From: Myxococcota bacterium
GTDB lineage: Bacteria; Myxococcota_A; SURF-8
Assembly (NCBI GenBank): GCA_963674735.2
Contig: CAXXQS010000002.1
Span: 1,216,001 to 1,280,000, forward strand
DNA length: 64,000 nt
Reading direction: 5' to 3'
Shown: positions 37,777 to 55,579 of the stretch, in pieces
Layout: the number at the start of each line of letters is the position of its first letter
How positions within the stretch are numbered: position 1 is the stretch's first letter
Notes under the pieces: generated by a model
What the model saw: the letters and a program-made list of their open reading frames with translations, nothing else
Told to the model about the DNA's origin: nothing
The model's database searches: none
Position numbers and translations under genes: made by a program

Positions 37777-37890
37777 GTCTGTTCGCGGCTTTTTGGCGTG
37801 CAACCGCCTTTCTCCCTTGCGTCCGGGTTACCGGCGGGATAAAGTTGCGGTGGAAACCACAGCGGCGAGCAAGAATGGGAAAAACGGACC

Positions 37891-38805
37891 ATGGAACGTA
37901 TCGACGTCAAATGCGGATTCAATTGCAATAACAAATGCTTCTTCTGCGTGCAGGGCGATAAGCGCTATCACTACGCCGACAAAAGCACCGACGAAGTCAA
38001 AAAAGTCCTCGACGACGGCCGCAAGGACTCGGACGCGCTGGTTTTCACCGGCGGCGAAGTGACCATCCGCAAAGACTTCCCCGAATTGGTGGCGCATGCC
38101 AAATCGTTGGGATTCCGGGTGATTCAGGTGCAGACCAACGGTCGCCTGTTCGCCTCGAAGGCCTTTTGCGAAAAGATCATCGCAGCCGGAGCGACCGAAT
38201 TTTCTCCGGCTATTCACGGACATACGTCCGAATTGCACGATTTCCTCACCCATGCGCCGGGTGCGTTCAAGCAGACCGTGCACGGGATCCAGAATCTCAA
38301 GGCGCTGGGACAGACCATCGTCATGAATTCGGTGATAACGCGTCCCAACTATCGCAATCTGCCCGATATGGCGCGCCTGTTCTCGGCGCTCAAGGTCGAC
38401 CAATTCCAGTTCGCCTTCGTGCATGCCCTGGGCAGCGCCGAAAAGCATTTCGAGATGATCGTACCGCGCAAGTCGCTGGTGGAGCCGTACGTCAAGCAGG
38501 CGCTGGCCATCGGCGTCAAAAACGGCTGCCGCGTCATGACCGAGGCGATTCCCTATTGCTTCATGAGCGGCTTCGAGGTCTTTGTGGCCGAACGTTACAT
38601 TCCGCGCACCAAGATTTTCGATGCCGACTGGGTGGTGGACGACTACACCGATTACCGCTGGAACGAGGGCAAGGCCAAGGGCGAGCCCTGCAAAACCTGC
38701 GCTTACCAAGATGAATGCGAGGGTCCCTGGCGGGAATACCCCGAACATTTCGGTTGGGATGAATTCAAACCGCGACCGGAAAAGACCGATGTCCCAAAAC
38801 CCTGA
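37891..38805 (+). CDS. radical SAM enzyme with short C-terminal Cys cluster (HxsC-like by recall)
   Basis: CNNKCFFC, TGGE, QTNGR, IPYC and C-terminal CKTCAYQDECEG. Confidence 0.85.
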   Translation: MERIDVKCGFNCNNKCFFCVQGDKRYHYADKSTDEVKKVLDDGRKDSDALVFTGGEVTIRKDFPELVAHAKSLGFRVIQVQTNGRLFASKAFCEKIIAAGATEFSPAIHGHTSELHDFLTHAPGAFKQTVHGIQNLKALGQTIVMNSVITRPNYRNLPDMARLFSALKVDQFQFAFVHALGSAEKHFEMIVPRKSLVEPYVKQALAIGVKNGCRVMTEAIPYCFMSGFEVFVAERYIPRTKIFDADWVVDDYTDYRWNEGKAKGEPCKTCAYQDECEGPWREYPEHFGWDEFKPRPEKTDVPKP

Positions 38806-40465: not shown

Positions 40466-40503
40466 TCCGGATCCCCGCCGAAAACCAATTTTGGATCGCG
40501 TAA

Positions 40504-40533
40504 TTGACGCTGTTCGCATCGATGTGTTAGGAT
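40504..40533 (+). promoter_or_regulatory. sigma70-type promoter upstream of the GT-C gene
   Basis: TTGACG-N18-TAGGAT with an extended TG. Confidence 0.45.
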
Positions 40534-40569
40534 GCGCCCACCCCGCAACAGTCGGACGTGGAGGTGGAT

Positions 40570-42816
40570 GTGAACGGGTTGAACGACAAGAAAACGCAGC
40601 GGCTGATTATGGCCGGACTGCTGGTGATTTCCGTGGTGATTCTCTTCTCGCGCTTGGGCGTTTATCCGCTGCAGATGCAATGGGAGCCCAACTACGGCCA
40701 GGTCGTGCGCGAGATGGTCTGGGGCGAAGGCAACGAGATTACGCCCACCTGCAAGGTCGGGTCCGACGAAGGTGCCGCGCCTGGGACTTTCTGGTCCAAG
40801 CCCATCATGATCTTCTGGCTGGCTTATCCCTTCTATGCCATGTTCGGCGACAGCGAATGGTCGGCGCGCGGTCCCATTGCGGCGCTCGGGGTGATCGTCA
40901 TCCTGTTCACCTACTGGTTTATGTCGCGTTTATACACGCGCCGGGTAGGTGTGTTGGCTTCTCTGCTGTTGCTAACGACCCCTGCTTACTTCCTGATTTC
41001 AAGAGCTTATATGGTCGACTTACCCTTTGTCGGCTTCATGTGGATGGGGGTGGGCTTTCTGCTGCTCGGGGAGAAAGAGGGCCGCGAACGTTGGTACAAC
41101 CTGTTTTTCGTTTTTCTGGGTTTGTCGGCGCTGGCCAAGGGTTTGACCCCGATCATCCTCACCGGTGGGACGGTCTTCTTTTATTGCCTGGTTTCGGGCG
41201 ACTGGGGCTTGCTCAAGCGGATGAAGTTGCATAAGGGGCTCATCATCTTCCTGATCGTCGCCGGTCCCTGGTATATCTACATGTCCAGCAAGTACGGTAT
41301 GCCGTATCTGAAGAAGTTTTTCTGGGACCACCATGTGGAGCGTTCGCTGGGCAAGCTCGACAAGCCCGACGACACCTTCGAGATGTTCGTGCTCTATTTC
41401 TCCATCGGCGTTTTGCCATGGATCACCTTTTTACCGCAGGCCGTGGCGACCATGCTGCCTTGGCGGCGGCGCGAAGCCGACCATCGTCGGCTGGAGCTGT
41501 TCTTCTTTATGGGCTTTCTGGTCACCTTCACCTTTTTCTCGGTGATTTCGACCAAGTTTGTGCACTACATCTTCCCAGCCGTTCCATACACCATGATGTT
41601 GATCGCGCTCTACATCGATCGCTTGTTCACCGAAAACGACCGGGGCGAGCTTAATCGTGTGAGTTTCTTCGCCGCGCTGATGGTGTTGTTGATCATCGCG
41701 CCCGATCTGATCGACATGAAGAACTACCGCACCTTGTTCTACTTCATCACCACCGAGCGCTTGCAGGACTGGCACCCCAATGTGGCCGATCCCAGCTACT
41801 TTTTCTCCATCGTGTTCGCCATCTGGGGGGTGGTGCTGTTCGTTTCCTTTGTGATCCGACGTTTCAACCGCTGGATTTTCGGCGGGTTGTTGGCCTTGTC
41901 GATCGCCTACGCTTTCTACATCAATTTCCAGATGATTCCGACTTTGACCGAAATGTTCTCGGCGCGTTCGATGATGCAAACCTACCTGGCCATGCGAGCC
42001 GGTCCCGACGAGCCTATCGGCGAATTTACGCAAACCTGGAAATCGCGTTCGATCAAGTACGAGATGCCCTTCAAGGAACTGAAGGACACCTACCAGTATC
42101 GTCGCTATCGCATTAACAACAATCTCAACTCGGTGCGGCGTTACTACCAAACCTACAAAGGCAAGCGCGTTTTCATCATCATCGAGCAGAAGCAGAAACA
42201 TTTCGACCGCATCAATGCCTTGTGGCAGGAAGTGTCGGATGGCGAGAAGCTAATCAAGATTTTCGACGACAGCGTGCCGGGCGAGCCGTATCGCTCGGAA
42301 TTCTGGCTGCTTTCCAACCGCGACAACTTCGGGCGGGCCGTCAAATTGACACCGGAGCAGATGATGGCCGAATTGGAGCAGAATGTACGCCGTAAACCCT
42401 TTGACGTACCGCAGAAATTGGAAGTCGATTTCGAAGGCGAGATCGATCTTATGGGTACCGATGCCATTCCGACCAAAATCAAGGCCGGATCGGAATTGAC
42501 CCTCGCCCTGTACTTCAAGGCCAAGCGTAAACCCACGCGCGATTACAAGATTTTCATTCACGCGGAGCGCGCCACCACGTTCCGCCTGCGCGGCGATCAT
42601 GTCCCCGTGAGCGGCCGCTATCCCACCACGCGCTGGAAGGAAGGCGATTACATCAAGGATGTCTATAAGTTGGACATCCCACCCAATACGGCCCCCGGCG
42701 AGTTGGAAATCTTCATCGGTCTCTATCAGGGCAACTATCGCGCCCGGATGGCCGATGTCCCGCAGCGTGACGGCGAGGGCCGCCTGAAAATCGCCACCGT
42801 CGAGGTAACGCTCTAA
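40570..42816 (+). CDS. ArnT/family-39 membrane glycosyltransferase with C-terminal periplasmic domain
   Basis: WEPNYGQVVREM, FWSKP, EWSAR, LAKG, PWY and YIFP; about 13 TM helices; C-terminal DYKIFIH...DH.P..G.YPT..W..G domain. Confidence 0.85.
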   Translation: MNGLNDKKTQRLIMAGLLVISVVILFSRLGVYPLQMQWEPNYGQVVREMVWGEGNEITPTCKVGSDEGAAPGTFWSKPIMIFWLAYPFYAMFGDSEWSARGPIAALGVIVILFTYWFMSRLYTRRVGVLASLLLLTTPAYFLISRAYMVDLPFVGFMWMGVGFLLLGEKEGRERWYNLFFVFLGLSALAKGLTPIILTGGTVFFYCLVSGDWGLLKRMKLHKGLIIFLIVAGPWYIYMSSKYGMPYLKKFFWDHHVERSLGKLDKPDDTFEMFVLYFSIGVLPWITFLPQAVATMLPWRRREADHRRLELFFFMGFLVTFTFFSVISTKFVHYIFPAVPYTMMLIALYIDRLFTENDRGELNRVSFFAALMVLLIIAPDLIDMKNYRTLFYFITTERLQDWHPNVADPSYFFSIVFAIWGVVLFVSFVIRRFNRWIFGGLLALSIAYAFYINFQMIPTLTEMFSARSMMQTYLAMRAGPDEPIGEFTQTWKSRSIKYEMPFKELKDTYQYRRYRINNNLNSVRRYYQTYKGKRVFIIIEQKQKHFDRINALWQEVSDGEKLIKIFDDSVPGEPYRSEFWLLSNRDNFGRAVKLTPEQMMAELEQNVRRKPFDVPQKLEVDFEGEIDLMGTDAIPTKIKAGSELTLALYFKAKRKPTRDYKIFIHAERATTFRLRGDHVPVSGRYPTTRWKEGDYIKDVYKLDIPPNTAPGELEIFIGLYQGNYRARMADVPQRDGEGRLKIATVEVTL

Positions 42817-42817
42817 G

Positions 42818-44323
42818 GTGAGGAGCCCGATGGACGAGCGTCCGTCCACCCGTGAAACCGCCCGCCGAGCCGGGCGCGGTCTGATCTGGATCAGCGCCGC
42901 CAAGGCCTACTTCATCCTGTCGGGTGTTGCCCTCATTACGTTTTTACCGCAGTTCATCGGCCGTACCGACCAGGAGCGGGCGGAATTGTATGGTGATTTC
43001 ACGGTGGTTATCGGAATTCTGAATCCGTTGACCATGATGATGATCACCGGTGTCCTGCAGGCGGTGAGCCGTTTTGTCTCGGAAGATCCACGGCGCTATC
43101 GGGCCGTTCGTCGGGAATCCACGATTTTACAAGCTATTTTCGGGTTTGTGGTGGCGTCCGGCTTTGCCTTGCTGGCTCCCTGGATCGCCCGCCTGCTGGG
43201 TGATGTCGCCTTGACTCCCTACCTGCAGTCCGCCAGTGTCATTATTCTGTTTTACTCCATCTATGCTGCGCTGGTGGGTGGGTTGAACGGTCTGCGTCGC
43301 TTCGGGACGCAAGCCGTGCTCGATACGGCCTTCGCCACATTGAAAGTCGGCCTGATTCTTACGCTGACGGCCCTCGGCTTTGGTGTGATGGGGGCGGTTG
43401 TGGGGTTTGCCGCGACATCCGGGTTGATGTTGGTGGTTGTGTGGGTGATTTCCTCCCGACGCGCGCAGCCGACGGACGGCGCGGGTGTCGGGTGGCGTCG
43501 GCTGCTGCGTTTCGAAGCTTGGATTATGGGTTTTGCTCTGGCGGCCAACCTGCTGATGAACGCCGATCTGTATGTAGTCAAGGCGCTTGGGCCGGGAGAT
43601 GCCGCCACCGGTATTTACGCGGTAGCGTTGCAGGTGGCGCGTCTGCCTTATATCGCCGTGATTTCCGTCACCTTCGTCGTTTTTCCGCTGGTTTCGGCGG
43701 CCAGCGGCGCAGAAAATCTCATCCGCATGCGCGGTTACATCGAAACGACGGTTCGCTACGTTCTCATTCTGACGGTCTGTCTGGCGGTGACGCTCTCGGC
43801 GGCGGCTGCGGATGTTTTGCGTCTGGCTTTCGCCCCGATCTTTTTCGAGGGCTGGCCGCTGTTGTCGGTTTTGCCGCTGGCCTATGCGGGCTACGCCTTG
43901 ATGATCGTTTTTGCCACCATCCTCACCGGTTCGGGGCGTCCGGTCCAATCGTTGATCCTGGCGGGGGTGACCTTGCTTCTTTCGGTGGTGGCCAATGCTT
44001 TCGCCATTGCACCGTTCGGTTTGTTCGGGGCGGCGGTGGCGACCGCTTCGGCCATGTTGCTTGGGGCGGGCCTCGGTTGGTGCTTGCTGGTCCGATCGTT
44101 CAAGCCGGCCTTTCCCTGGGCAACGTTTGGTCGTCTGGGGTTGGCTTCGCTGGCCGTCTATGCCACATCCGCTTTCTGGCAACCCGAGGCTCGCGGACTG
44201 ATTGTTGCCAAAGGATTGATTTTGTTAACAATTTTCATAGGATTGCTGGTTCTTATGAAAGAATTGAGGGCCGAAGACAGCGCTCGCTTCAAAGCCGTAA
44301 TCAGCCATAAACGATCGGAGTGA
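42818..44323 (+). CDS. MOP-superfamily (Wzx-like) oligosaccharide flippase
   Basis: About 14 hydrophobic segments; YG, NADLYVVK and TGIYAVA...FP pattern; adjacent to the GT gene. Confidence 0.8.
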   Translation: MRSPMDERPSTRETARRAGRGLIWISAAKAYFILSGVALITFLPQFIGRTDQERAELYGDFTVVIGILNPLTMMMITGVLQAVSRFVSEDPRRYRAVRRESTILQAIFGFVVASGFALLAPWIARLLGDVALTPYLQSASVIILFYSIYAALVGGLNGLRRFGTQAVLDTAFATLKVGLILTLTALGFGVMGAVVGFAATSGLMLVVVWVISSRRAQPTDGAGVGWRRLLRFEAWIMGFALAANLLMNADLYVVKALGPGDAATGIYAVALQVARLPYIAVISVTFVVFPLVSAASGAENLIRMRGYIETTVRYVLILTVCLAVTLSAAAADVLRLAFAPIFFEGWPLLSVLPLAYAGYALMIVFATILTGSGRPVQSLILAGVTLLLSVVANAFAIAPFGLFGAAVATASAMLLGAGLGWCLLVRSFKPAFPWATFGRLGLASLAVYATSAFWQPEARGLIVAKGLILLTIFIGLLVLMKELRAEDSARFKAVISHKRSE

Positions 44324-44376
44324 AACCCTTTCGCATACACCGGGGGCTGAGGACCGACGGAACTGTTGCAAAGAAG

Positions 44377-44405
44377 TTGACACCGCCGATTCCCTTTCTT
44401 ATAGT
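44377..44405 (+). promoter_or_regulatory. sigma70 promoter of the RDD-smc-ftsY operon
   Basis: TTGACA-N17-TATAGT. Confidence 0.7.
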
Positions 44406-44463
44406 GTGGCATCCCAGGGGGGTGATAACACGCACCTCTGGAATGCGAGATTAGGGAATAACC

Positions 44464-45012
44464 ATGATGACGCCAACAAACAGCAATCCCGCTCCGGTGA
44501 GCGATGGGGAAAACGGGGGAGTGCCGGTGAAAAAGGCCGATCTTCTGCAACGGGTGCTGGCGCGCCTGATCGACCTGTTGATTTTCGCCGCTTTTTGCAG
44601 TTTGTATCCCATCGGAATGCTGGCCGGTTTTTTGTATCTGCTCATCGCCGACGGGCTGATGGGCGGGCGTTCGATCGGCAAGCGGATCATCGGTTTGTAT
44701 GTCGTGCAATTCGATACCTACGAGCCTGCCGGATATCGTGAATCGATTATCCGCAATGCCGATATCGCTTTGCTGGGTTTGTTCACGGTGATTCCCCTTC
44801 TCGGACCGATTTTGTTGTTTACGGTCGGACTGATTATCGTGGTGGTGGAAACCTATCTGATCGCCCGTAATGAGTTCGGCCAACGCGCCGGAGATATCCT
44901 GGCCGGGACGGAAGTGATGGAATGGCCCCGGACAATTCCCGGCATGAATCCGTCGCCCCTTCCCGAAGAGGCGGCGAGCCCATCGACCCCCGACAACGAG
45001 GAGAAGGCCTGA
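44464..45012 (+). CDS. RDD-family membrane protein
   Basis: RVLARLID, GRSIGKRIIGLYVV, RN and QRAGDILAGTEV. Confidence 0.88.
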   Translation: MMTPTNSNPAPVSDGENGGVPVKKADLLQRVLARLIDLLIFAAFCSLYPIGMLAGFLYLLIADGLMGGRSIGKRIIGLYVVQFDTYEPAGYRESIIRNADIALLGLFTVIPLLGPILLFTVGLIIVVVETYLIARNEFGQRAGDILAGTEVMEWPRTIPGMNPSPLPEEAASPSTPDNEEKA

Positions 45013-45042
45013 GGCGGCGGCCGCCGGGCTTTTTGAGGCAAT

Positions 45043-48000
45043 ATGCGAATCAAGCGATTGGACATCAACGGGTTCAAGTCGTTTCCCGACAAAGTGACCC
45101 TCATGTTCGACCAACCCATCGTGGGCGTTGTCGGTCCCAACGGTTGCGGCAAATCGAACATCGTGGACGCCATCCGCTGGGTGATGGGCGAACAAAGCAT
45201 CAAAGCTCTACGCGGCAGCGGACGCGAGGATGTGATTTTTTCCGGTAGCGAATCGCGCGCGCCGTTGGGCGTGGCGGAGGTGACCCTCACCTTCGACAAC
45301 CGCGACAAGCTGGCACCGTCCGAATATGCGGAGTATCCCGAAATCGCCGTTTGTCGCCGTCTCTATCGTGACGGAAGCAGCGATTACCAGATCAACAACG
45401 CCCCCTGCCGTCTGCGCGATATCACCGAACTTTTCCTCGGCACCGGTGCGGGCAACAAAGCCTATTCCATCATCGAGCAGGGCCGCATCAGCCTGATCGT
45501 ATCGGCCAAGCCGGAAGACCGCCGCCTGATGATCGAGGAGGCTGCGGGGATTACCAAGTATCACGCCCGCAAGCGCGAGGCCGAACGCAAAATGGCGGCC
45601 ACGCAGCAGAACCTGACCCGCATCGGCGATATTATCGCCGAGCTGCGCAAACAATTGAACAGCTTGTCGCGTCAAGCCAAAAAGGCCGAGCGTTATCGTG
45701 ATCTGAAAAAACGGCTCAAGGAAATCGATCTGCGTTTTACCGGCCGTGAATACGCCGAGGTGCTCGACGCGATCGAGCAGACCGCGAAAGCCGTGACTGA
45801 ACTGAGCGAGCGTCAGGCTGGTATGGGCGGTAAAATCGTCGCCATGGAAGGCGAAGTGGATGCCCGCAATCTGAAACTGGCCGCGCGCGAGCGAGAACTG
45901 AACGACTGGCAGGAGATCATCCACGGCCTGGATCAGTCGATTCGACTGGATGAACGCAACATCGAAGTCTTCAGCGAGGAGCTTCAGCGTATCAGCGAAC
46001 GCGAAGTGGAGATCGACAACGAACTCGACGGTCTGGATCAGACGCTGAAAGAACAACGTGAACGCGTCACCGATCTGGAAGGCGAGCAGCAACGCGCCTT
46101 GGCCGGGTCGCAGGAAGGTGAGCGTATTCAGAGCGAAGCGGAAGAACGCTATCGTCTATCCGCGCAGGAGTTCGACCGTCAGCAGCAGGAGATCGACCGC
46201 TCGAAACGGGCCATTTTCGAACATATGGCCGCCACCGATCGGGCTCTGCATAAGCTGGAAACGCTTCGCAACCGTCTGACCGACAACACCGAGCGGGCCG
46301 AGCGCAATCGCCGGGAACGCCAGGACGTGGAACGCAAGCTCACCGAATTCGAAACCTCCCGCAAGGACTTCGTCGATGCCTTGGGCGGCTTGCGGCAAAT
46401 GAAATTGAAATTGGAAAGCGCGCGCAACGAAAAAGCCGAAACCTTGGAGCGTGAACGAAACTCCTATCTGGATACGGAAGAACGTTTGACCGCCGAACGC
46501 GACCGCCTCACGGCGAGCCGTTCACGGCTGGACTCCCTCCGCGAGTTGGATGAGGCCTTGGAAGGCTTCGGGGATAGCGTGAAAAAGCTGCTGTCTCCCG
46601 ATGGCGATGGACCGGGCTTCGGCGACGGCGAGGTGGTGGACGCCTTGGCGCGGCTGGTGAAAGTCGATCCCGCCTATGAACGCGCGGTCGGTACGCTTTT
46701 AGGCGAGCGGCTGCAATGGCTGGTGGTGACCGGGCAGGAAGCCGGTCGCAAGGGCGTTGCCTGGTTGAAGAAAAACGACGCGGGTCGGGCGGCTTTCTTG
46801 CCGCAGGACGCGCCGCAGCCGGAGGCGCCGGCCACCTTGGGTGACGGGGCTCTGCCGTTGGCGGAAGTGGTGTCCGCCGCGGGCGTGACCGAGAGCGTAG
46901 TCAAGCGCATGCTTGAAGACGCCTACATGGTGGATGACCTCGATACGGCCTGTCGTCTATGGCGCGAAACCGGCGGGCGCTACCGCTTCGTGACTCCCGA
47001 AGGCGATTTTGTCGATGCGAGCGGTGCCGTGGGCGGCGGATCGGGCGACCAGATCTCTCAAACCCTGCTCAAGCGCCGTCGTGAAATGGAAGAGCTGGAA
47101 GCCGTCGGCCGCGAGCTGGGGCAGGTGTGCGAACGCCTGGCGCGCGAACGTGACGAACGCGTGCAGCTCATTCGTCAACTTGAAGGGCACATCGAGACCG
47201 TTCGGCAAGACAGCCACCGCCAGGAAATGAAAATCCTGGAACAGGAAAAAGACATCAACCGCATCGAGTTCGAACTCGGGCAGTTTCAGCGGCAACTCGA
47301 CAGCCTGGACCGCGAATATGTCGGACTCAAAGACGAAGCCCGGCAATTCGAGCTTGAGCGCGATGAATTGGAAGTAGAGCGCAAAACGGCGCATCAGCGG
47401 CGTGAGGAAAGCGAAGCCGAGCTGAAGGCCATGCAGGAGACCCTCGACGAAAAGGCCACGCAACGCGAGGAGGCATCGCGGCGTTTGACCGAGACGCGCG
47501 TCAAGACGGCCGAGGCTTTGCAACGCCGCCAGCATCTGGAGTCGGATCTGCGCTTGGCGCGGGAACGCGAAACCGATCTGGCCGGACGTTCCGAGCGTCT
47601 GGCTTTCGAACGTCGCCGGGGAGCGGAGCGACGTGAAGAACTGACGCGCGAACTGGCCACCACGCGGGTGCGTTTGGAGGAACTGATCAAGCGTTCCGAG
47701 CGTGAACAGGACAAGCTCAGGGATGCGCGCAACGCTTTGGCGGAAGAACAGGAAACCATTCGCGGTTTCGCCGAGGGCGTGCGTGTTCAGCGCAAAGAAC
47801 TGGATGCGATACGCGCCGAATTGTCTGAAAAACAGATTGCCCAAAAAGAATTGGGCCTGCGTGCCGAACACCTGATCGAGCGCGTGGATGAACGCTACGG
47901 AATCACCCTGCCCACCGAATACACGGAATATCTTGACGACCCGGCTCCAGGTGACGACGAGCGTAGCGAGATGGAAGACATTCGTCTTCGTATCGAGCGC

Positions 48001-48594
48001 ATGGGCGAGGTCAACCTTACCGCCATCGGCGAGCATGACAGTGTTTCAGAACGCTATCAATTCCTGTGTGACCAGGAAGACGATCTGACCCGTTCGATGT
48101 CCATGCTGCAGGAGGCCGTCGATAAAATCAACCGCACCACCCGTAAGCGCTTCAAAGAAACCTTCGACGAAGTAAACACTCGTTTCTCGAAACTCTTCCC
48201 CGAGTTGTTCGGTGGGGGTGAAGCGGAGTTGATGTTTACCGATCCCAATAATTTGTTGCAAACCGGTATCGAAATCGTCGCGCGGCCTCCGGGCAAGAAG
48301 CAGCAGCCCGTCAGCCTGCTATCCGGTGGTGAGAAGGCGCTTACGGCTGTCAGCATGATCTTCGCCATCTTTTTGTATCGGCCTACGCCTTTCTGCTTGT
48401 TGGATGAGGTGGACGCGCCGCTCGATGATGTGAATATCGGCCGCTTTATCGCGACGATCAAGCGTATCTCCAAAACCAGCCAATTCATCTTGATCACCCA
48501 CAACAAGAAAACCATGGAGATTTCCAACACGCTGTACGGGGTCACCATGGAAGAACCCGGCATTTCGAAAATCGTGTCGGTGAACTTGACGTAA
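45043..48594 (+). CDS. smc: chromosome segregation protein SMC
   Basis: GFKSF, GPNGCGKSN, coiled coils with a hinge, LSGGE and LDEVDAPLD. Confidence 0.97.
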   Translation: MRIKRLDINGFKSFPDKVTLMFDQPIVGVVGPNGCGKSNIVDAIRWVMGEQSIKALRGSGREDVIFSGSESRAPLGVAEVTLTFDNRDKLAPSEYAEYPEIAVCRRLYRDGSSDYQINNAPCRLRDITELFLGTGAGNKAYSIIEQGRISLIVSAKPEDRRLMIEEAAGITKYHARKREAERKMAATQQNLTRIGDIIAELRKQLNSLSRQAKKAERYRDLKKRLKEIDLRFTGREYAEVLDAIEQTAKAVTELSERQAGMGGKIVAMEGEVDARNLKLAARERELNDWQEIIHGLDQSIRLDERNIEVFSEELQRISEREVEIDNELDGLDQTLKEQRERVTDLEGEQQRALAGSQEGERIQSEAEERYRLSAQEFDRQQQEIDRSKRAIFEHMAATDRALHKLETLRNRLTDNTERAERNRRERQDVERKLTEFETSRKDFVDALGGLRQMKLKLESARNEKAETLERERNSYLDTEERLTAERDRLTASRSRLDSLRELDEALEGFGDSVKKLLSPDGDGPGFGDGEVVDALARLVKVDPAYERAVGTLLGERLQWLVVTGQEAGRKGVAWLKKNDAGRAAFLPQDAPQPEAPATLGDGALPLAEVVSAAGVTESVVKRMLEDAYMVDDLDTACRLWRETGGRYRFVTPEGDFVDASGAVGGGSGDQISQTLLKRRREMEELEAVGRELGQVCERLARERDERVQLIRQLEGHIETVRQDSHRQEMKILEQEKDINRIEFELGQFQRQLDSLDREYVGLKDEARQFELERDELEVERKTAHQRREESEAELKAMQETLDEKATQREEASRRLTETRVKTAEALQRRQHLESDLRLARERETDLAGRSERLAFERRRGAERREELTRELATTRVRLEELIKRSEREQDKLRDARNALAEEQETIRGFAEGVRVQRKELDAIRAELSEKQIAQKELGLRAEHLIERVDERYGITLPTEYTEYLDDPAPGDDERSEMEDIRLRIERMGEVNLTAIGEHDSVSERYQFLCDQEDDLTRSMSMLQEAVDKINRTTRKRFKETFDEVNTRFSKLFPELFGGGEAELMFTDPNNLLQTGIEIVARPPGKKQQPVSLLSGGEKALTAVSMIFAIFLYRPTPFCLLDEVDAPLDDVNIGRFIATIKRISKTSQFILITHNKKTMEISNTLYGVTMEEPGISKIVSVNLT

Positions 48595-48607
48595 GGAATT
48601 CGAACGA

Positions 48608-50053
48608 ATGAATGGATTCAATTTCGAGCTTAGTTTAGAGAAGTTTTACCAGCTGGTGGTGACCAACGATGCGGTTTTCTACAGCGTCATCGCGGCCACG
48701 GCGTTGCTGTTGATTCTGTTGATCTGGCGGCTGGCGCGCGTGGGTAAGCCGTTTGACGATTTGGAGGATGAGGCGGATCCGGATCGCGAAAAACGCGATC
48801 GGATGGTCGATCACATGATCGAAGACATCACCCATCAGGCACCTGAGCACGAACGCATCGAAGAACCGCGCATACAACCGGTGCAGCCGACGCCGGAAGA
48901 TCTTGAGAAGCTGCGCCAACGCCGGATGGAAGCGAACACCGACACGGTGGAAGTGCTGCGCACGCTTTCCACGGATTCGGCGGTCAAGGCCTACCAAACC
49001 CGGCCGGTGGGAGAAGCGGAACCGGAGCTGGTTCACCTGCAACAAGCTCCCGTGCCGGATCAGACTCCTCAGCCTGTGCCCGCCGAGACACCGAAACCGG
49101 TCGTCAAGCCGGAACCTACGCCCAAACCCAAGCCGAAGGCGAAAGCGGAGCCCAAGCCGAAAACCCTGGAAGAAGGGCTGGCTAAAACCAAAGGCGGTTT
49201 TATCAATCGTCTCAACAGCTTGGTATTCGGCCGTAAACAGATCGATGATGCCATTTTCGAGGAATTGGAAGAGATTCTGTACGAAGCCGATATCGGTCCC
49301 ACCGCCACGCGCTTGTTCGATAAAGTGGCCGAGCAGGCCAAGCGCAACGAATTGAAAGACCCCGAGCGTATTCGCGAGCTGCTGCGCGAAGAAATCGGCC
49401 TGATTCTGGCCAAGGCCGAGAAACCCTTTGTGTTATCCGATGAAAAGCCCCAGGTGATCCTGATGGTGGGCGTCAACGGCGTGGGTAAAACCACCACTAT
49501 CGGCAAGCTGGCCAAATCGTTTTCCGATCAAGGCAAACGGGTGATGCTGGCCGCGGGTGATACCTTCCGCGCGGCGGCAGTGGAACAATTGGATGTTTGG
49601 GGTAAGCGCGCCGATGTTGACGTGATCAGCGCCAAAGAAGGGGCCAATCCCTCCGGGGTGATCTATTCGGCGGTGGAAGCGGCTAAAGCGCGCGAGGTGG
49701 ATGTGCTGATTGCCGATACCGCCGGGCGATTGCACACCAAGTATAACCTGATGGAAGAACTGCGGAAAATGAAATCCGTTGCGGGGAAGGCCCTGGGGCG
49801 CGAGCCGGACGAGATCTGGTTGGTGCTCGATGCCAATACCGGCCAGAACGCGGTCAATCAGGCGGCCAAATTCCACGAAGCCCTGGGTTTGACGGGACTC
49901 ATCCTCACCAAGCTCGACGGCACGGCCAAGGGCGGTGTGGTCATCGGCATCACCGACCAACTGGAGCTCCCCATTCGCTTCATCGGTATCGGCGAGGCGG
50001 TGGCGGATCTGCGGCCCTTCGTTGCCAAGGAATTTGTGGAAGCACTGTTCTGA
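48608..50053 (+). CDS. ftsY: SRP receptor FtsY with an N-terminal TM helix
   Basis: GVNGVGKTTT, DTFRAAA, DTAGR and TKLDGTAKGG. Confidence 0.96.
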   Translation: MNGFNFELSLEKFYQLVVTNDAVFYSVIAATALLLILLIWRLARVGKPFDDLEDEADPDREKRDRMVDHMIEDITHQAPEHERIEEPRIQPVQPTPEDLEKLRQRRMEANTDTVEVLRTLSTDSAVKAYQTRPVGEAEPELVHLQQAPVPDQTPQPVPAETPKPVVKPEPTPKPKPKAKAEPKPKTLEEGLAKTKGGFINRLNSLVFGRKQIDDAIFEELEEILYEADIGPTATRLFDKVAEQAKRNELKDPERIRELLREEIGLILAKAEKPFVLSDEKPQVILMVGVNGVGKTTTIGKLAKSFSDQGKRVMLAAGDTFRAAAVEQLDVWGKRADVDVISAKEGANPSGVIYSAVEAAKAREVDVLIADTAGRLHTKYNLMEELRKMKSVAGKALGREPDEIWLVLDANTGQNAVNQAAKFHEALGLTGLILTKLDGTAKGGVVIGITDQLELPIRFIGIGEAVADLRPFVAKEFVEALF

Positions 50054-50166
50054 GGGGATCGAGCCGATCTCACCAGTTGCCAGCCATTACATAAAACAAA
50101 CCCGGTGATCCAAGCCAAGCTTCGACACCGGGTCTATTTTTTTGTGTCTTGTGTGCGAGCGGACAC

Positions 50167-50349
50167 TTAGCCCATGGTGATGGCGCCGAGCGGGCACACT
50201 TCGATGCATTCGTTGCACTCGGTGCAAGCTTCGGGATGCACGACGACCGCGACATCGTTCTGGATTTCGTAGCAGTTGGGGTCGCCCGGACACACCGCTT
50301 CGCAGGAACCGCAACCCTCACAGAGGTTTGAATCGACGACAGTAGCCAT
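50167..50349 (-). CDS. 2x[4Fe-4S] ferredoxin
   Basis: CEGCGSCEAVCP and CTECNECIEVCP; AGGAGG RBS before ATG 50349. Confidence 0.93.
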   Translation of the reverse strand: MATVVDSNLCEGCGSCEAVCPGDPNCYEIQNDVAVVVHPEACTECNECIEVCPLGAITMG

Positions 50350-50514
50350 AAGAGATCCTCCTTGAAAGACCATGCATGTTCATTTCAACCTAGCCTACCA
50401 GTGGTGTCGATACCACCGGAAGGCCGGGGGCGTCAAGTGAAAAGGACAGGTTGACGATATTTTTAATTAGCTGTCAAACCCATCGGGTTCGTGGAAATTC
50501 ATGTTTCAACAACC

Positions 50515-53136
50515 TTACGGCAATCCGGGTGCGGTGTAGCCGTTGTTGTCCGTATCGATGAAAATCGGGTTGAGGATGCTCAAGACCGGTTGTCCGGGCG
50601 AAACCGGACCGAGGTCTTTTTCGGGTGCGCCCGCCAAAACGGCCACCCAGCTATCTCCGTCGAGAGCCGGCAAGGTGTGGGTGGCGCTGTAGCGTTCCGT
50701 CTCGGTTCCCGAAACGGCTTCCTCGACCACCGTTTGCCCGTTGACGACGATACGAATCCAGTCCACCGGCATCCATGACGGGGCCTGTACGTGTACGGCA
50801 ACCTCGTAGGGGCCATCGCCGGTCACGGTTCCGCCCACGCCGACTCCATTGATTTCAGCGGTGACGAAGGGACCGGAGGCCGCCATGACTTGCAGGCTTT
50901 TGACGGCCGTGATGAGTTCGTTGTTGCTGACGGCGTTGGGGTCGTCCTTGCCGACGTAAACAAAGCTGCGGCCATCGCCGGGATTGTTCTCGGTGTGCGA
51001 GTCGGATACCGCTGTTCCGGCTACGTGAATGCCCTGGTTGAGCAGGCTGTACCAGTCGGGCAGAACTTTGCTGAGGGACGTGCTCACAGCTCCCGAGTTG
51101 ATGAGTTCCACCATGTCGAAATCTTCGGAGAACACACCGTCTTCAAGGCCCGCGACCCCGACGGCGGGATCGTAGTCGATGACATCGAAATAGCCTTGCG
51201 AGCCGCGCGGATGATTGATCTGGACGAGCTGGCTATCGAAGGTATCGTGCAACTCGGTCCAGATTTCCGGCATGCTCATCGGTCCCAGGAAATGATCGTC
51301 CTCGGCGTCATAGCCTTTGTACCAGTAGACGCCGAAATAGTCGGGTCGTTCGGGTTGTTTGGTGAGAATGATCCCATTGGTGTGCGCCCAGGGAGGCGAA
51401 ACTTCGTCACCGACGAGCACACGCAGATAGTCGCGCAAGCCCAGCGGATCGACCAGCGGATCGAGATTGCTGATGTGATCGTGGTCGGTGATGGGCGTCA
51501 ATTCCAAGCCGACGGCCGCCAGTTGGGTGACCCGTTCTTCGATCGGGACGACGGCGTCGATGGATAGCTCCGTATGCATGTGGAAGTCGCTGGCGATCCA
51601 GCCCGTACTATCGACCACGCGGGTCAGATCTCCCGTGAAATCGATTGTTTGTTTCGCGGCTAACGTGATGGATTTCTGAACGATGTCGTATTCGTAACCG
51701 CGCGAAGCGGTGAGAGTGTAGTCGCCGGGTTCGAGCAGGAAAGTTCCCTGGCCATCGGTACTGAAGACGCGTTTGATGATGGCCGCGCCGGAGGCTGCGT
51801 CGGTGCCCGCTTGTACGCTGATGCGGCAAGGCAAACCATCGTGCGAACTACCATCGAAGTGCTCGCCGCCGATGGTAAAGGTGATGCGTCCGGTGGCGGG
51901 CAGCGCGATTTCGGCTTGCACGGGTTCGTCGCCCACGGTGACGGGGCCCACCGGCTCTCCTTGCGGACGACCGTTTTGACGCGTGATAACCGTGTAATTT
52001 CCGAGGGGTAGATTGAACGCCAGCGGTGCATCGCCGATCCGGGCGGTTGTGACCGGAATGTCTTCGTCGTCGAGAATCTCCACTTGAGCGGGCTGACCGG
52101 CGTCTTGTGGGTCGTCCAGGCTGGTCGTCACCGTGAGCGTGGTTGTCGCGTCGCCGGTGATGGCCGCGCGCTCTGCATGCACGGCCTCGAGGTTGGGGCC
52201 CACCGAGAAATAGCGGGTGAAGCTGCCGGATTGTCCCGGTTTTATGTCGACCCGAGTGCCGACGATGGGCAGAATGTCGGCCTGGTCGAGAGGAACATTC
52301 AGCAGGCCTTCCGCCGGATAATAGCCGTAGGCGATGCCGTCTCCCACTGCGAACTGGGCCGGGAAATCGCCCAGAGCAGCCAGACCTTTAAGCCCCCAGC
52401 CCAAGCCGGGTGTCAGAATATCGAGGCGGTTGCTCCAAACGACAGCGTCGCCCAGATCCACTTCCTGGCGGCTGTCGGAAGCGACCGTGGTGGTGATTTC
52501 CAAGCTGCGGCTTTCGGGGAGCAGGCGGTAATCCAGGGTGACCGCGAGGCCGAGAGACTGAAAGGGGATCGCCATGTCGACGATGGGGATTCCATAGTCC
52601 CGCCCGGTCACGCGCAGATGGGCGACCGTCCCCGCCGAGCCGTCGTCGATGACTTCGAAGGTTTCGGGGATGAAGCCGCGCAGGATGGCCGTAATGATAC
52701 TGACTTCGTCGAGGAGATCTTCGCCTTGTTCGTCGCCGTCCAACCAGACCGCATCGATGAGCGTGCCGCCCATGGGCACCCAGGAACGGGTTTTCCCGGT
52801 TCCCTGTATGACAAACAGAGCCCGTTCGTTCGCGATCAGGTAGTCGCCGGCCTGTACACCCGCCGAGGGGCCGTCCAGAACGGCGCTTCCGTCGCTCAGC
52901 AACTCAACCCGAAGTCCGGTCAGCGGAGGTTCATCGCCGTCGGGTTCATCGCCATCGGGCTCGTCGCCATCAGGCTCATCACCGTCGGGCTCATCACCGT
53001 CGGGAGTATCACCATCCGGTGTGTCGCCATCGGTGGGGTCACCGGTATCGCTGTCGGAACCTCCGCAGTTGACGGCAAAAAACATCAGCATGCTCAAAAC
53101 AACCAACATGACGCCATTTAAACAAATCCGACGCAT
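50515..53136 (-). CDS. PHP-type (CehA/McbA-like) metallohydrolase lipoprotein
   Basis: Lipobox-like AVNC; DFHMHT..S.D, ITDHD, GDE, QINHPR and SDSH. Confidence 0.85.
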   Translation of the reverse strand: MRRICLNGVMLVVLSMLMFFAVNCGGSDSDTGDPTDGDTPDGDTPDGDEPDGDEPDGDEPDGDEPDGDEPPLTGLRVELLSDGSAVLDGPSAGVQAGDYLIANERALFVIQGTGKTRSWVPMGGTLIDAVWLDGDEQGEDLLDEVSIITAILRGFIPETFEVIDDGSAGTVAHLRVTGRDYGIPIVDMAIPFQSLGLAVTLDYRLLPESRSLEITTTVASDSRQEVDLGDAVVWSNRLDILTPGLGWGLKGLAALGDFPAQFAVGDGIAYGYYPAEGLLNVPLDQADILPIVGTRVDIKPGQSGSFTRYFSVGPNLEAVHAERAAITGDATTTLTVTTSLDDPQDAGQPAQVEILDDEDIPVTTARIGDAPLAFNLPLGNYTVITRQNGRPQGEPVGPVTVGDEPVQAEIALPATGRITFTIGGEHFDGSSHDGLPCRISVQAGTDAASGAAIIKRVFSTDGQGTFLLEPGDYTLTASRGYEYDIVQKSITLAAKQTIDFTGDLTRVVDSTGWIASDFHMHTELSIDAVVPIEERVTQLAAVGLELTPITDHDHISNLDPLVDPLGLRDYLRVLVGDEVSPPWAHTNGIILTKQPERPDYFGVYWYKGYDAEDDHFLGPMSMPEIWTELHDTFDSQLVQINHPRGSQGYFDVIDYDPAVGVAGLEDGVFSEDFDMVELINSGAVSTSLSKVLPDWYSLLNQGIHVAGTAVSDSHTENNPGDGRSFVYVGKDDPNAVSNNELITAVKSLQVMAASGPFVTAEINGVGVGGTVTGDGPYEVAVHVQAPSWMPVDWIRIVVNGQTVVEEAVSGTETERYSATHTLPALDGDSWVAVLAGAPEKDLGPVSPGQPVLSILNPIFIDTDNNGYTAPGLP
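52927..53031 (-). repeat. 7 x 15-bp repeat encoding a DGD(T/E)P linker
   Basis: DGDTP x2 plus DGDEP x5 shortly after the lipoprotein Cys. Confidence 0.9.
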
Positions 53137-53285
53137 CCTTCCGACTCCTTTGCATTAAAAGCCGTGTTAGATCAAGATTACGAAACCGTTAGAGAGGGTA
53201 CATCAGGCGGAGAGAAGAAAATAGGAAAAAATGCAGGAAATGGCGCAGAAAGGAATGAAAACCGGGAGCGCGATATGAGGTGAAT

Positions 53286-53873
53286 CTAGGGAAAACGCAG
53301 ACCGACCGAAATCTCCGTTCCGAGACCGGAGGTCATGATAAGGCTTTGCAGACGACCGCCTTTCAAGCCGGTTGCACCGTACATCAAGGCGACTTCGACG
53401 TCGAGTGCCAGAATGGGCGCCATATACCAACTCAACGAAACGGGCACGCGGCCGTATAGCTCCGTACCCAGATCCACCTGATCACCAAACACGAACGTGC
53501 CGCGTATGCCGAAACCCACTGATGGTTCGATTTCACCCAATACCCAGCGCCAGTTCAAACCCAAGGCGGTTCCGATCGACTGTAAATCGCCGAAATCACC
53601 TTGGGCTGTTTCATAGGCATACAGGGGTTGAAGTTGAAAAACGAAGCCTTCCCGACCGAAAAGCATGTCGGCCGCAACTTGTCCCCCGTGACGATCGTCG
53701 ATGGAAAGACCCAGGAGCGATCCGTCTTGAAAGAACACATACCCTGCTTTGGGGGCCAGGCTGAACCAGGGGCGTTTTGGGGTGGTGGTGTTTTCTGCGC
53801 GGACGTCGGCGAACAGGGAAAACAAGGGACCGAGAAACAGGATAATGAAGACGACGTATCTGATCACAACCAT
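53286..53873 (-). CDS. putative outer-membrane beta-barrel protein
   Basis: Signal peptide; amphipathic beta strands; ends VGLRFP. Confidence 0.65.
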   Translation of the reverse strand: MVVIRYVVFIILFLGPLFSLFADVRAENTTTPKRPWFSLAPKAGYVFFQDGSLLGLSIDDRHGGQVAADMLFGREGFVFQLQPLYAYETAQGDFGDLQSIGTALGLNWRWVLGEIEPSVGFGIRGTFVFGDQVDLGTELYGRVPVSLSWYMAPILALDVEVALMYGATGLKGGRLQSLIMTSGLGTEISVGLRFP

Positions 53874-53959
53874 TCACCTGCGGATCGGGTTCATTTGGTC
53901 AAGCTCCCCTTGGTTGTACTCGCGTAGGCGGACGAAGTCAATGTGACGATTACTAAGGA

Positions 53960-54829
53960 TCAGTGCAATTGAGGTTCCTGGTCGTCGGAGTCGTCGAACC
54001 AAGGGGTGTTTTCGGGACTGCTGGGGGCTCGGTCGGAAGCGGTGAGTGAGCTTGGCTCGGTCGGATTTTGGCTCTTCGCTTCCGGGGTTTCGTTTGTTTC
54101 GGATTCCCCGCGGCGCACTGCCATGATTTGTTCGAGAAATCCGAGCGAAAAGCGCCGTGACTTATACAAGCTGCGCAAATCGGGAAGGGACAGCGAAGGC
54201 AGAATGAGCATGACCAGCCGGGGAGGCGTATCGGGGTTGTTGAGCAGAGCGGTTTTCACCCGATAGCGGGCAAACCACTTGGGATGTTCCACCACCTGGC
54301 GTAGGGCTTCCGGGTGGTTGGGACGTCTGGCGCATATTTTGATGACGTGTTCTTCTTTAAGCTGCGGATGACGCAGCAGGTTTTTAATGACGGCCGGATC
54401 GGGGTCGACCAGGAGTTTTTCGAGCAGAAGCGGCGAAGCTTTGCGGGCATGCCACTTACGTTCGCCGAGTGTCATATCCTGCAAGTCCTGATGGGCCTGC
54501 AGGTTTTTCGGTTTCGGCTTGCGAATGGGCAGGGGGGCCAGCCATTCCGTGGCCAGCAGCAGACCTTGGCGGTCGGCGATATCGAAAATCGTACTCAGGC
54601 GACGTCCGAAGCATTCGCGAACGATACTGAAATCCGTCATATCTCGAAGTAGAGCCAGGCTGTTACGATTTTTCCGAATGGCTTGGCGATAAAGTTCGTC
54701 GAATAAATGGGCGACTTCTTCATCGCTGAAACGGGAAAACTCGTGGGCGGTGCGCCGTGCACGGAAGCTCGCTTCTTTGAGGGGCCTTACGCGTTCGGCG
54801 ATGGCCCGGATGATGTCATCATAGTCCAT
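53960..54829 (-). CDS. hypothetical helical-repeat (LRV-like) protein
   Basis: MTLGERK..AR, DPDPAVIKNLLRHP and YRVKTALLNNPDTP repeats. Confidence 0.7.
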   Translation of the reverse strand: MDYDDIIRAIAERVRPLKEASFRARRTAHEFSRFSDEEVAHLFDELYRQAIRKNRNSLALLRDMTDFSIVRECFGRRLSTIFDIADRQGLLLATEWLAPLPIRKPKPKNLQAHQDLQDMTLGERKWHARKASPLLLEKLLVDPDPAVIKNLLRHPQLKEEHVIKICARRPNHPEALRQVVEHPKWFARYRVKTALLNNPDTPPRLVMLILPSLSLPDLRSLYKSRRFSLGFLEQIMAVRRGESETNETPEAKSQNPTEPSSLTASDRAPSSPENTPWFDDSDDQEPQLH

Positions 54830-54869
54830 GCTGTTCGCCGCTCAATTCATGACGATCGTTGAAACGGCG

Positions 54870-54909
54870 CAAAAAAAACGCCGCATGACCGGAGATCCGG
54901 TTGGCGGCG
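54870..54909 (-). terminator. terminator after the His-Xaa-Ser peptide gene
   Basis: Minus strand reads CGCCGC-CA-ACCGG-ATCT-CCGGT-CAT-GCGGCG followed by a T run. Confidence 0.8.
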
Positions 54910-54938
54910 GAAGCATGGCCGTTTGATCGAAACGCTGT

Positions 54939-55352
54939 TTACCAACTCCCGTGGGAACCATGTGAGCCGTGGGAGCCATGCGAGCCGTGGGAGGCGTGGG
55001 AGCCATGGGAGCCGTGGGAGCCGTGGGAACCATGAGAACCGTGGGAGCCATGCGAGCCATGCGAGCCATGCGAGGCATGCGAACCGTGCGAGGCATGTCC
55101 GGCATGCAACGACTGTCCCTCGGCCATGGCGGCTTGAATGTCCGGCGAATGGCCGTCCAGATAGTCGGCTGCGTCGTGATGGTCCGGTCCGATGTTGATC
55201 CCTTCTTTTTCAGCTGCTTCGAGCGACTGTCCCAGGAGAAGCAAAGTTGTGGATGCCGTGAGGGCTTGCTTCTTGGTGATTTTGCCTTCTTCTCCCGTGA
55301 GGAACTGGCCGACCTTTTTTTGAATTTTAGGGAGCTTGCGTTTCGCACTCAT
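54939..55352 (-). CDS. His-Xaa-Ser repeat protein (HxsA-like putative RiPP precursor)
   Basis: AAAGGAG RBS; 137 aa; basic/hydrophobic leader and acidic spacer, then HAG plus 17 H(G/A)S triplets and a terminal W; synonymous codons vary within the repeat. Confidence 0.9.
   Translation of the reverse strand: MSAKRKLPKIQKKVGQFLTGEEGKITKKQALTASTTLLLLGQSLEAAEKEGINIGPDHHDAADYLDGHSPDIQAAMAEGQSLHAGHASHGSHASHGSHGSHGSHGSHGSHGSHGSHGSHASHGSHGSHGSHGSHGSW
54945..55106 (-). repeat. 18 x 9-bp degenerate tandem repeat encoding His triplets
   Basis: HAG-HAS-HGS-HAS-(HGS)8-HAS-(HGS)5 read directly from the codons. Confidence 0.95.
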
Positions 55353-55486
55353 CAGCGTCTCCTTTGTGGTCGCAGCGCGAGTAAACCAACCCGCTTCCGA
55401 CGGCCCGGTCGGCATCAATCGATGCAGATACACTCCCCTTGACGCCAGCCTCTCCATCAGACATACGTCAAGTCAAGGTAAGATCA

Positions 55487-55516
55487 ATTGTAACAGACCC
55501 ATTTGCAGTCTGTCAA
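55487..55516 (-). promoter_or_regulatory. sigma70 promoter of the HxS peptide gene
   Basis: Minus strand TTGACA-N18-TACAAT with an extended TG; the -35 box overlaps the palindrome GTCAAGCTTGAC (55512-55523). Confidence 0.65.
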
Positions 55517-55579
55517 GCTTGACGTGCATGTATGTCAGTCCTAACAAATGTCGGGCAAAAATCGTGGATCTTTTTGAAA

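Follow-up and report, generated by a model that had tools for sequence, protein, structure and literature searches.

Proteins carrying His-Xaa-Ser (HxS) repeats stood uncharacterised for more than a decade before work on the canonical HXS system, published in 2026, connected them with phage DNA entry. That study (Li et al., Nat Commun 2026, PMC13128918) describes E. coli HXS, with the components HxsD-HxsB-HxsC-HxsA, as an antiphage system that blocks the entry of phage DNA. In the same account HxsB, HxsC and HxsD are each required for the N-terminal cleavage of HxsA, HxsC binds HxsD, and mature HxsA works in the periplasm against phage DNA entry; a change of +8 Da was mapped to one S-H-R-S-S motif and is the only mass shift given there as measured for an HxsA. 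Canonical systems form one D-B-C-A operon in 99.6% of cases and are 99.7% Pseudomonadota, with a patchy distribution that includes 27% of Klebsiella genomes (PMC13128918). Here we describe an HxS-repeat gene of the HxsA4 family from a Myxococcota genome (G000), which occupies positions 54939-55352 on the minus strand of a 64,000-nucleotide stretch (the window; G000:C2:1216001-1280000) and which we refer to as the orphan. We consider it probable that the orphan is a functional, separately transcribed second HxsA4 copy, processed in trans by a dispersed type-4 Hxs set with multiple radical S-adenosylmethionine (rSAM) enzymes.

A search of the full-text literature returned the E. coli HXS study and its preprint, mentions in genome annotations and one rSAM-mapping paper; none of the papers found dealt with HxsA4 or with an Hxs system of multiple rSAMs. 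A preliminary description of this DNA, which called the HxS product and function poorly characterised, did not take in the 2026 study, in which canonical HXS is shown to be antiphage (PMC13128918). A second point of comparison is provided by the triceptide synthases HaaB (motif HAA), YhhB (HNR) and HtkB (HTK), rSAM/SPASM enzymes that form cross-links from His-C2 to the C-beta of residue 3 (PMC11499958).

G000 resembles E. coli HXS in having a true HxsB, a true HxsD, two-Cys-motif rSAMs of the HxsC type and an HxS-repeat substrate. The differences are nevertheless extensive. HxsA has a peptidoglycan-binding domain, which is lacking in HxsA4, a protein of 137 residues with ~17 repeats, most of them H-G-S. 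Canonical HXS has two rSAMs where G000 has five rSAM families in six genes, plus HxsD, and the single hxsD-B-C-A operon is replaced by components spread over at least four loci on two contigs. Likewise, canonical HXS is patchy in Klebsiella, whereas whole Myxococcota families carry or lack the set described here. The G000 system would operate in the manner of HXS, but judged by HxsA, HxsC, operon order and domain content it does not pass as HXS.

The orphan encodes an HxsA4 peptide

The orphan encodes 137 residues followed by a stop codon, and its translation, family score and alignment with 11 homologues lead us to annotate the product as a His-Xaa-Ser repeat precursor or effector. It scores 85.8 bits (E 2.8e-24) on the NCBIfam model for HxsA4, NF038313, against a cut-off of 55, and the gene also lies above this cut-off in a six-frame search of the genome. 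The peptide is thus a member of a family already curated by NCBI and does not define a new one, and its earlier reading as an HxsA-type precursor, for which a search with HxsA models had been proposed, is borne out. Its first 42 residues also match HxsA3 (NF038309). The model for HxsA itself (TIGR03979) gives no match to it at E<=0.01, and the second HxsA4 copy of the genome, on contig C1, reaches 22.9 bits on this model (cut-off 121.65). For the window peptide the one Pfam match, to the Collagen repeat, stayed below threshold, and no peptidoglycan-binding domain was recognised. A search of public proteins found 120 homologues at E<=1e-5, one of which, from a Candidatus Omnitrophota metagenome-assembled genome (MAG), is named HxsA4 by NCBI; the remaining named homologues are hypothetical, apart from one low-complexity match called collagen-like, and most are nameless.

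The peptide is made up of three parts, all encoded on the minus strand. The leader (residues 1-44, 55221-55352; MSAKRKLPKIQKKVGQFLTGEEGKITKKQALTASTTLLLLGQSL) is basic, with a pI of 10.5, and in an alignment of 12 sequences the residues E21, E22, G23, K24, I25, T26 and K27 (EEGKITK) and S34, T35 and T36 are invariant in all 12. The linker that follows (residues 45-82, 55107-55220) is acidic, with a pI of 4.2 and nine Asp plus Glu residues against one Lys plus Arg, and is poorly conserved and variable in the alignment. The core (residues 83-137, 54942-55106) comprises the HxS array and a C-terminal Trp, and contains 18 His residues and no Lys, Arg, Asp or Glu. Codon-wise reading gives the C-terminus as HAG-HAS-HGS-HAS-(HGS)8-HAS-(HGS)5-W followed by the stop, exactly as the preliminary description had it, which amounts to 17 HxS triplets plus HAG.

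All 25 relatives collected from genome contexts end in Trp, and in 23 of them the array opens with HCS, where the window copy has Ala instead of Cys (HAS). The array is 16-18 triplets long in 17 of 24 peptides, some of the relatives' repeat regions reading N and the gene starts of high-GC relatives being approximate, so the length of the window array, at first singled out as unusual, is the family norm. The leader, HxS array and C-terminal Trp, features that we derived from the relatives and not from the curators' text, are all present in the window copy and are common to it and its relatives; it departs from them in that the Cys of the first triplet is replaced by Ala (2 of 25) and in having no adjoining Hxs enzyme. 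Copy number and array length differ among genomes: tandem hxsA4 pairs occur at L039:1036-1973 (G002) and at L065:9880-10740 (G043), and one copy of the G043 pair has 23 triplets and the other 18.

The array is spelled in diverse codons. His is encoded by CAT ten times and CAC eight times, Gly by GGC (9), GGT (4), GGG (1) and GGA (1), and Ser by TCC (8), TCG (6), TCT (1), TCA (1) and AGT (1), giving nine distinct 9-nucleotide spellings among the 14 HGS units. Tandem Repeats Finder reports a period of 9 and 16.2 copies with matches of only 80%. Because the spellings vary to this extent, the HxS repeat is maintained at the protein level and is not a fresh product of slippage, in agreement with the selection on the peptide first read from its synonymous codons. 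It is also far from a chance feature, since a six-frame scan of the 5.26-Mb genome found only two open reading frames (ORFs) with at least three consecutive HxS triplets, the window gene and its C1 paralogue.

The gene has its own expression signals, as the preliminary description of a monocistronic gene with promoter, ribosome-binding site and terminator had proposed; all three were located, by scan, by reading and by folding, respectively. A sigma-70-like promoter (TTGACA-18-TACAAT with a TG extension) lies at 55487-55516 on the minus strand and agrees with the consensus at 11 of 12 positions in a promoter scan, the region containing two promoter-like sites against 0.4 expected from shuffled sequence. 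Similar TTGAC(A/T)-17-TA(G/A)(A/G)AT boxes stand 140-180 nucleotides upstream of the orphan orthologues in G001, G003, G004 and G008. The ribosome-binding site AAGGAG (55359-55364, minus strand) is placed 6 nucleotides 5' of the ATG, and AGGAG is the sole invariant block in an alignment of the 5' untranslated regions (UTRs) of six orthologous leaders (42% identity). Although the longest ORF in this frame starts at 55457 and would give 172 residues, the alignment puts the start of all 11 homologues at the MSxK position, where the ribosome-binding site is also placed, and so we take the start as 55352 and regard the 172-residue version as unsupported. Just past the stop, a GC-rich hairpin followed by U8 (54871-54909, minus strand; -29.7 kcal/mol, z -2.65) forms an intrinsic terminator that was found by folding energy and z-score and was not picked up by a simple terminator scan.

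Rfam recognised no riboswitch or other conserved RNA family in the ~135-nucleotide 5' UTR (best E 8.6). A motif GA(C/T)(C/T)GGG(C/T)(C/T)GTC, ~45-60 nucleotides before the start codon and without an Rfam family, lies at 55395-55412 and in the orthologous 5' UTRs of L054, L057 and L060; it recurs in the orphan 5' UTRs of G000, G003 and G004 and more weakly in G008. A perfect 12-bp palindrome, GTCAAGCTTGAC, present as a single exact copy in the window, overlaps the -35 box of hxsA4 (region 55437-55526), with several CTTGACG/CGTCAAG inverted repeats near it. A metal-regulator box was considered for these elements and rejected, as they are absent upstream of the orthologues in G001, G003, G004, G006 and G008 and of the other Hxs loci; the palindrome and inverted repeats may be a strain-specific operator.

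The enzymes are encoded at dispersed loci

The partners that had been suggested for a genome-wide search, HxsB-like and HxsD-like proteins, were both found over their cut-offs on C1. HxsB is encoded outside the window at G000:C1:2646780-2648201 (C1:2.647 Mb) and scores 547.6 bits on TIGR03978 (cut-off 370). The second HxsA4 copy (80.9 bits on NF038313) lies between HxsB, upstream, and an rSAM of 322 residues without an assigned family, downstream. HxsD is present as a domain in a protein of 216 residues (C1:4868-5518; 66.8 bits on TIGR03976, cut-off 50), within a group of genes at C1:2788-5518 whose other products are an uncharacterised protein of 314 residues and an HxsC-like rSAM (113.3 bits on HxsC, TIGR03977, cut-off 267.9). 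A second HxsC-like rSAM, 50% identical to the copy beside HxsD, is solitary at G000:C2:958141-959076, and two HxsC-like copies are likewise found in G001, G003, G004 and G005.

The model for HxsC4 (NF038332) has 31 matches in the genome, all under its cut-off of 500. Some of these sub-cut-off matches lie in runs of adjacent rSAM genes, four at C1:1873596-1877418, two at C1:744878-747063 and two at C1:994942-996711; the genome is unusually rich in HxsC-type rSAM paralogues, which possibly come from other peptide-modifying clusters. Genes for a TonB-dependent receptor and exoproteins adjoin the C1 Hxs cluster. A link to a metallophore through these genes was rejected, as they are not kept at the clusters of G003 and G004, where there is no match of 100 bits or more.

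The window rSAM pair is part of the set

The preliminary description had proposed as maturases two rSAM genes of the window (37891-40465, plus strand), 14,474 bp from the orphan (40465 to 54939). rSAM1 (37891-38805), of the HxsC type, has 304 residues, a CX3CX2C motif at residues 12-19 and a C-terminal CKTCAYQDEC. rSAM2 (38789-40465) has ~558 residues when read from its ATG at 38789 and lies in an ORF that at its longest starts at 38582; it combines an HxsC-type core with ~300 residues after the radical SAM core that have no Pfam match, and ends in CRNCAQTAAC. Both proteins thus carry CX3CX2C together with a C-terminal CxxCx5C motif, the same arrangement as the two-cluster layout of HxsC (PMC13128918). 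On HxsC4 and HxsC (TIGR03977), respectively, rSAM1 scores 176 and 107.5 bits and rSAM2 100.8 and 77.7 bits, against cut-offs of 500 and 267.9; the HxsC4 scores of seven homologues of rSAM1 in other phyla are 152.6-181 bits. By these scores HxsC4 is the nearest curated model for rSAM1 and not its family.

In two relatives, G015 and G056, a single cluster encodes an rSAM of ~600 residues, an HxsC-like protein, HxsD, HxsB and HxsA4. The best G000 match of the cluster rSAM is window rSAM2 (330 and 318 bits, the next matches scoring 103 and 97 bits), and the relationship is one of reciprocal best matches. rSAM1 homologues with 51-80% identity were found in 80 loci labelled Myxococcota, Elusimicrobia, Omnitrophota, Verrucomicrobia, Planctomycetia, Saccharibacteria, Parcubacteria, Woesearchaeota and Methanosarcinales. 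Another Hxs component lies within 3 kb of the rSAM1 homologue in 58 of these loci and in 22 there is none; the neighbours are rSAM2 (36 loci), HxsC-like (36), HxsB (16), HxS peptide (13) and HxsD (4). The adjacency of peptide genes and rSAM orthologues for which a check had been suggested is present elsewhere, in those 13 loci and in the G015 and G056 clusters. Homologues with 53-59% identity are found in MAGs whose labels read Parcubacteria, Saccharibacteria, Woesearchaeota, Pacearchaeota and Methanosarcinales (L142, L145, L153, L154, L162, L175 and others), some of them adjoining genes for HxsB or HxS peptides; either horizontal transfer carries the system across domains or some of the bins are wrongly labelled.

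Judging from orthology to the cluster rSAMs, the phyletic pattern described below and the linkage of rSAM1 to Hxs genes, rSAM1 and rSAM2 are members of the type-4 Hxs system. That part of the original proposal stands, but the pair are not the sole partners of the orphan, since HxsB and a second precursor are on another contig and HxsD and an HxsC-like rSAM are at a third place, and they are probably not the primary ones. The 14.5-kb proximity of orphan and pair is probably incidental, as it is not kept in G001, G003 or G004.

In the window (36712-44323, plus strand) the pair has a UDP-GlcNAc 2-epimerase gene on one side and genes for PMT_2 glycosyltransferase and Polysacc_synt flippase proteins on the other. 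All of these genes share a strand and the gaps between them are short, so that in this genome the pair may be co-transcribed with its neighbours. At 20 rSAM2 loci elsewhere, a PMT_2 homologue is found within 10 kb in one (G007), and the epimerase and flippase in none. O-glycosylation of Ser by the adjacent PMT_2 protein was accordingly rejected as a candidate step.

The genes of the set occur together

Co-occurrence was assessed in a sample of 61 genomes (G000 and 60 relatives) and in a larger sample of 251 Myxococcota genomes, whose tables were compared by hand. One group of 26 genomes among the 61 has HxsB, and exactly this group has HxsD and likewise the HxsC-like rSAM. rSAM2 is found in 25 of these 26 and nowhere else among the 61, the exception (G009) being 90% complete; rSAM1 (E<=1e-60) occurs in 21 genomes, all HxsB-positive. 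HxsA4 over its cut-off is likewise present in 21 genomes, all within the 26, and the 35 HxsB-negative genomes have sub-cut-off low-complexity matches (22-37 bits) in 13 cases and none in 22.

The larger sample follows the same pattern. HxsB is found in 93 and rSAM2 in 91 of the 251 genomes, with both in 89 and neither in 156; HxsB is alone in four (G009, G109, G119 and G223) and rSAM2 in two (G126 and G171). The counts of the two genes are equal within families of mixed content (6 of 10 genomes in f14, 3 of 17 in f17 and 3 of 15 in f25), and these matching splits therefore indicate repeated joint gain or loss. Of the 89 genomes with both, 34 have HxsB and rSAM2 on a single contig and no more than 17 kb apart. 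At the family level the system is present in 22 of 22 genomes of f12 and 12 of 13 of f19, and in none of the 24 of f9. The identity of rSAM1 to its homologues in other phyla and archaea (51-59%) is similar to that in other Myxococcota families (42-65%), which suggests horizontal spread and, to that extent, favours a defence-like or otherwise transferable role.

Stand-alone precursors are common

The preliminary description had treated the separation of the precursor from its enzymes as unusual. The orphan does stand alone, but this is not exceptional. Of the 21 genomes with HxsA4, ten have a copy beside HxsB, and three of these (G000, G003 and G004) also carry an orphan; ten others (G001, G006, G007, G008, G009, G017, G028, G038, G048 and G053) have unlinked copies only, where unlinked means that there is no HxsB within the examined 8-10 kb either side, and G002 was left out of this division. 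Unlinked precursors are thus usual in the HxsA4 family. In G001, G008 and G005 an rSAM of the 322-residue type follows HxsB by 17-38 nucleotides and no peptide gene intervenes. G001 and G008 have no HxsA4 gene other than the unlinked one, which is natural evidence that unlinked copies are working substrates.

The orphan and cluster copies form distinct sequence groups, the former sharing QFL...GQSL and the latter MFLQG...GQT. A homologue of the 289-residue protein p289, encoded directly downstream of the orphan (53960-54829, minus strand), adjoins the orphan in G000, G001 and G004. The ratio of non-synonymous to synonymous differences (pN/pS) in the leader is 0.08-0.38, with pS at 0.54-1.06, near saturation. 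These three observations indicate that the duplication is old and that both copies have been retained under purifying selection.

Proposed processing and alternative explanations

Our proposal, which we hold with reasonable confidence, is that the enzyme set and its substrates would be distributed over at least four loci (HxsB-HxsA4-rSAM of 322 residues; HxsD, the 314-residue protein and HxsC-like rSAM; rSAM1-rSAM2; and the orphan). The leader would dock the peptide on HxsB and the HxsC-type rSAMs, with HxsD as an adaptor as in E. coli HXS; HxsB and the HxsC-type rSAMs would then make radical modifications on the His and/or Ser residues of the triplets, and the leader would be removed after triplet modification. 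By analogy with E. coli HXS, processing presumably depends on all of the enzymes. A prediction of the complex of HxsB (22-row alignment) with leader residues 1-50 scored 0.00, was made without controls and is given no weight in either direction as to binding. The Cys that almost all relatives have where the array begins suggests an additional, Cys-dependent step, which the Ala copy would skip, giving a product without this modification. In the prochlorosins, scattered precursor genes with a shared leader are served in trans by an unlinked enzyme; G000 differs from such peptides, made by the ribosome and modified after translation (RiPPs), in that its enzymes are scattered too.

The H-G-S triplet fits the aromatic-X-X motif of the triceptides, and since cross-links from His-C2 to C-beta are established chemistry, one cross-link per HxS triplet is chemically plausible. 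HxsB is nevertheless outside the families of those enzymes, scoring 50.8 bits on YhhB (cut-off 445) and 46.1 bits on GrrM/OscB (cut-off 310), and the one mass shift measured for an HxsA is +8 Da (PMC13128918) and not -2 Da.

Several observations weigh against trans-processing of the orphan by this set, or against reading its product by analogy with E. coli HxsA. The window copy lacks the Cys found in 23 of 25 relatives and may therefore be a poorer or a different substrate. No HxsC-type enzyme of the genome reaches a curated cut-off, whether for HxsC4 or for HxsC, and the window rSAM pair is embedded in polysaccharide-synthesis genes. The genomes compared are related and not independent, so that each row of the co-occurrence is not a separate piece of evidence. 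In contrast to E. coli HxsA, the window peptide has no peptidoglycan-binding domain and its repeats are without basic residues, and distant relatives do not conserve a hydrophobic segment resembling a signal; for these last three reasons transfer of the E. coli antiphage mechanism is weak.

The loss of the Cys could mean that the orphan is no longer a substrate at all. It would then be a duplicate in decay, or would act as a decoy or regulator, competing for the enzymes that bind the leader while yielding no product. The distribution of the residue fits this idea: HAS is found only in the orphans of G000 and G003, both of which keep a Cys-bearing copy beside HxsB, and the orphans of G001, G008 and G006, which are sole copies, retain the Cys. 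We nevertheless judge it improbable. The reading frame, leader motif, C-terminal Trp, 17 triplets, near-consensus promoter, ribosome-binding site and terminator of the window orphan are all intact, and its leader is under purifying selection. The change from TGC to GCC takes two base changes and the same Ala is common to two genera, from which we infer that the Ala state is maintained; and as the orphan of G004 keeps its Cys, orphan status itself does not signify decay. A more radical departure would be to see the peptide as an unmodified His-rich protein of metal binding or storage, independent of any radical SAM enzyme, for which one could cite the 18 His residues of a core with no other charged residue, the strong promoter of a monocistronic gene and the lack of an enzyme gene within 14 kb. 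Against this, HxsA4 over its cut-off is restricted to genomes with HxsB in 21 of 21 cases, the 35 genomes without HxsB yielding just the 13 low-complexity matches (22-37 bits) and 22 blanks noted above, and the 44-residue leader, common to the copy beside HxsB, is conserved beyond the needs of a metal-binding tail; we regard this explanation as very unlikely. Hardly credible, and a shade less so still, is the possibility that the rSAM pair serves the surrounding polysaccharide genes and has nothing to do with the peptide, its likeness to HxsC being generic to radical SAM proteins. The same-strand epimerase, glycosyltransferase and flippase genes with their short gaps would fit such a role, as would the fact that all 31 HxsC4 matches of the genome are sub-cut-off, but the polysaccharide neighbours are not conserved (PMT_2 at 1 of 20 rSAM2 loci, the others at none), rSAM2 tracks HxsB over 251 genomes, and rSAM2 is the reciprocal best match of an rSAM inside Hxs clusters. 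Processing of the orphan in trans by the type-4 set thus remains our preferred explanation.

End use of the product

The product might serve, by analogy with E. coli HxsA, as an envelope-located antiphage effector, a suggestion we make tentatively and would sooner doubt than rely on. A metal-binding or metal-handling peptide is a less likely end use again, and the rest of the probability falls to something else. Further points against a simple transfer of the E. coli mechanism are the dispersal of the genes, the net negative charge at pH 7 of the peptide downstream of the leader and the fixation of the system at the level of families. No defence genes were recognised beside the C1 cluster or the compact G017 cluster, the two loci inspected, and at the single G017 locus the flanking genes encode a nucleoside phosphorylase, a 5'-nucleotidase and an aldolase. 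PADLOC-DB 2.0 gave generic viperin-type rSAM matches only. A broader idea, which we think rather unlikely, is that the Myxococcota type-4 set (HxsB, HxsD and four further rSAM families) is a dispersed, family-fixed pathway and not a mobile phage-defence island. The ~17 H-G-S triplets of each peptide would then be turned into a His-derived product, dense in modifications, that fills a housekeeping role (metal handling, for example), and the Cys and Cys-less paralogues would give two products from one enzyme set.

Other genes near the orphan

The p289 protein has no Pfam or NCBIfam match and resembles, by eye, a helical-repeat protein; its function is unknown, but it is conserved widely among Myxococcota. 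A role as a dedicated Hxs partner was considered and rejected, as its homologues are present in 45 of the 61 genomes, including Hxs-negative families, and are far from the orphan in G003; it is a synteny marker only. At 50515-53136 (minus strand) the window encodes an 873-residue metallohydrolase of the CehA/McbA family (129 bits, cut-off 80), whose signal-like N-terminus precedes an acidic repeat of the (P/T)DGD(E/T) type.

Significance

The HxsA4 family was already known. What is new is a gene set of seven families that is dispersed over at least four loci and yet inherited in lock-step, together with the placing of rSAM1 and rSAM2 in this set and a Cys-less orphan lineage. The set is a much more elaborate relative of HXS: it has HxsD and five families of rSAM, and its leader-core peptides are short, with ~17 repeats. 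Homologues of rSAM1 with 51-59% identity, many of them beside HxsB or an HxS peptide, extend to Elusimicrobia, Omnitrophota, Saccharibacteria and DPANN archaea. The genes are functionally tied, being gained and lost in lock-step, yet they are physically scattered, so that neighbourhood-based miners of RiPPs or defence systems would miss the links between precursor and enzymes that phyletic profiling recovers. The Cys and Ala copies constitute a natural pair of substrates for dissecting the roles of individual enzymes in a type-4 set that roughly one in three of the Myxococcota genomes sampled carries (HxsB in 93 of 251).

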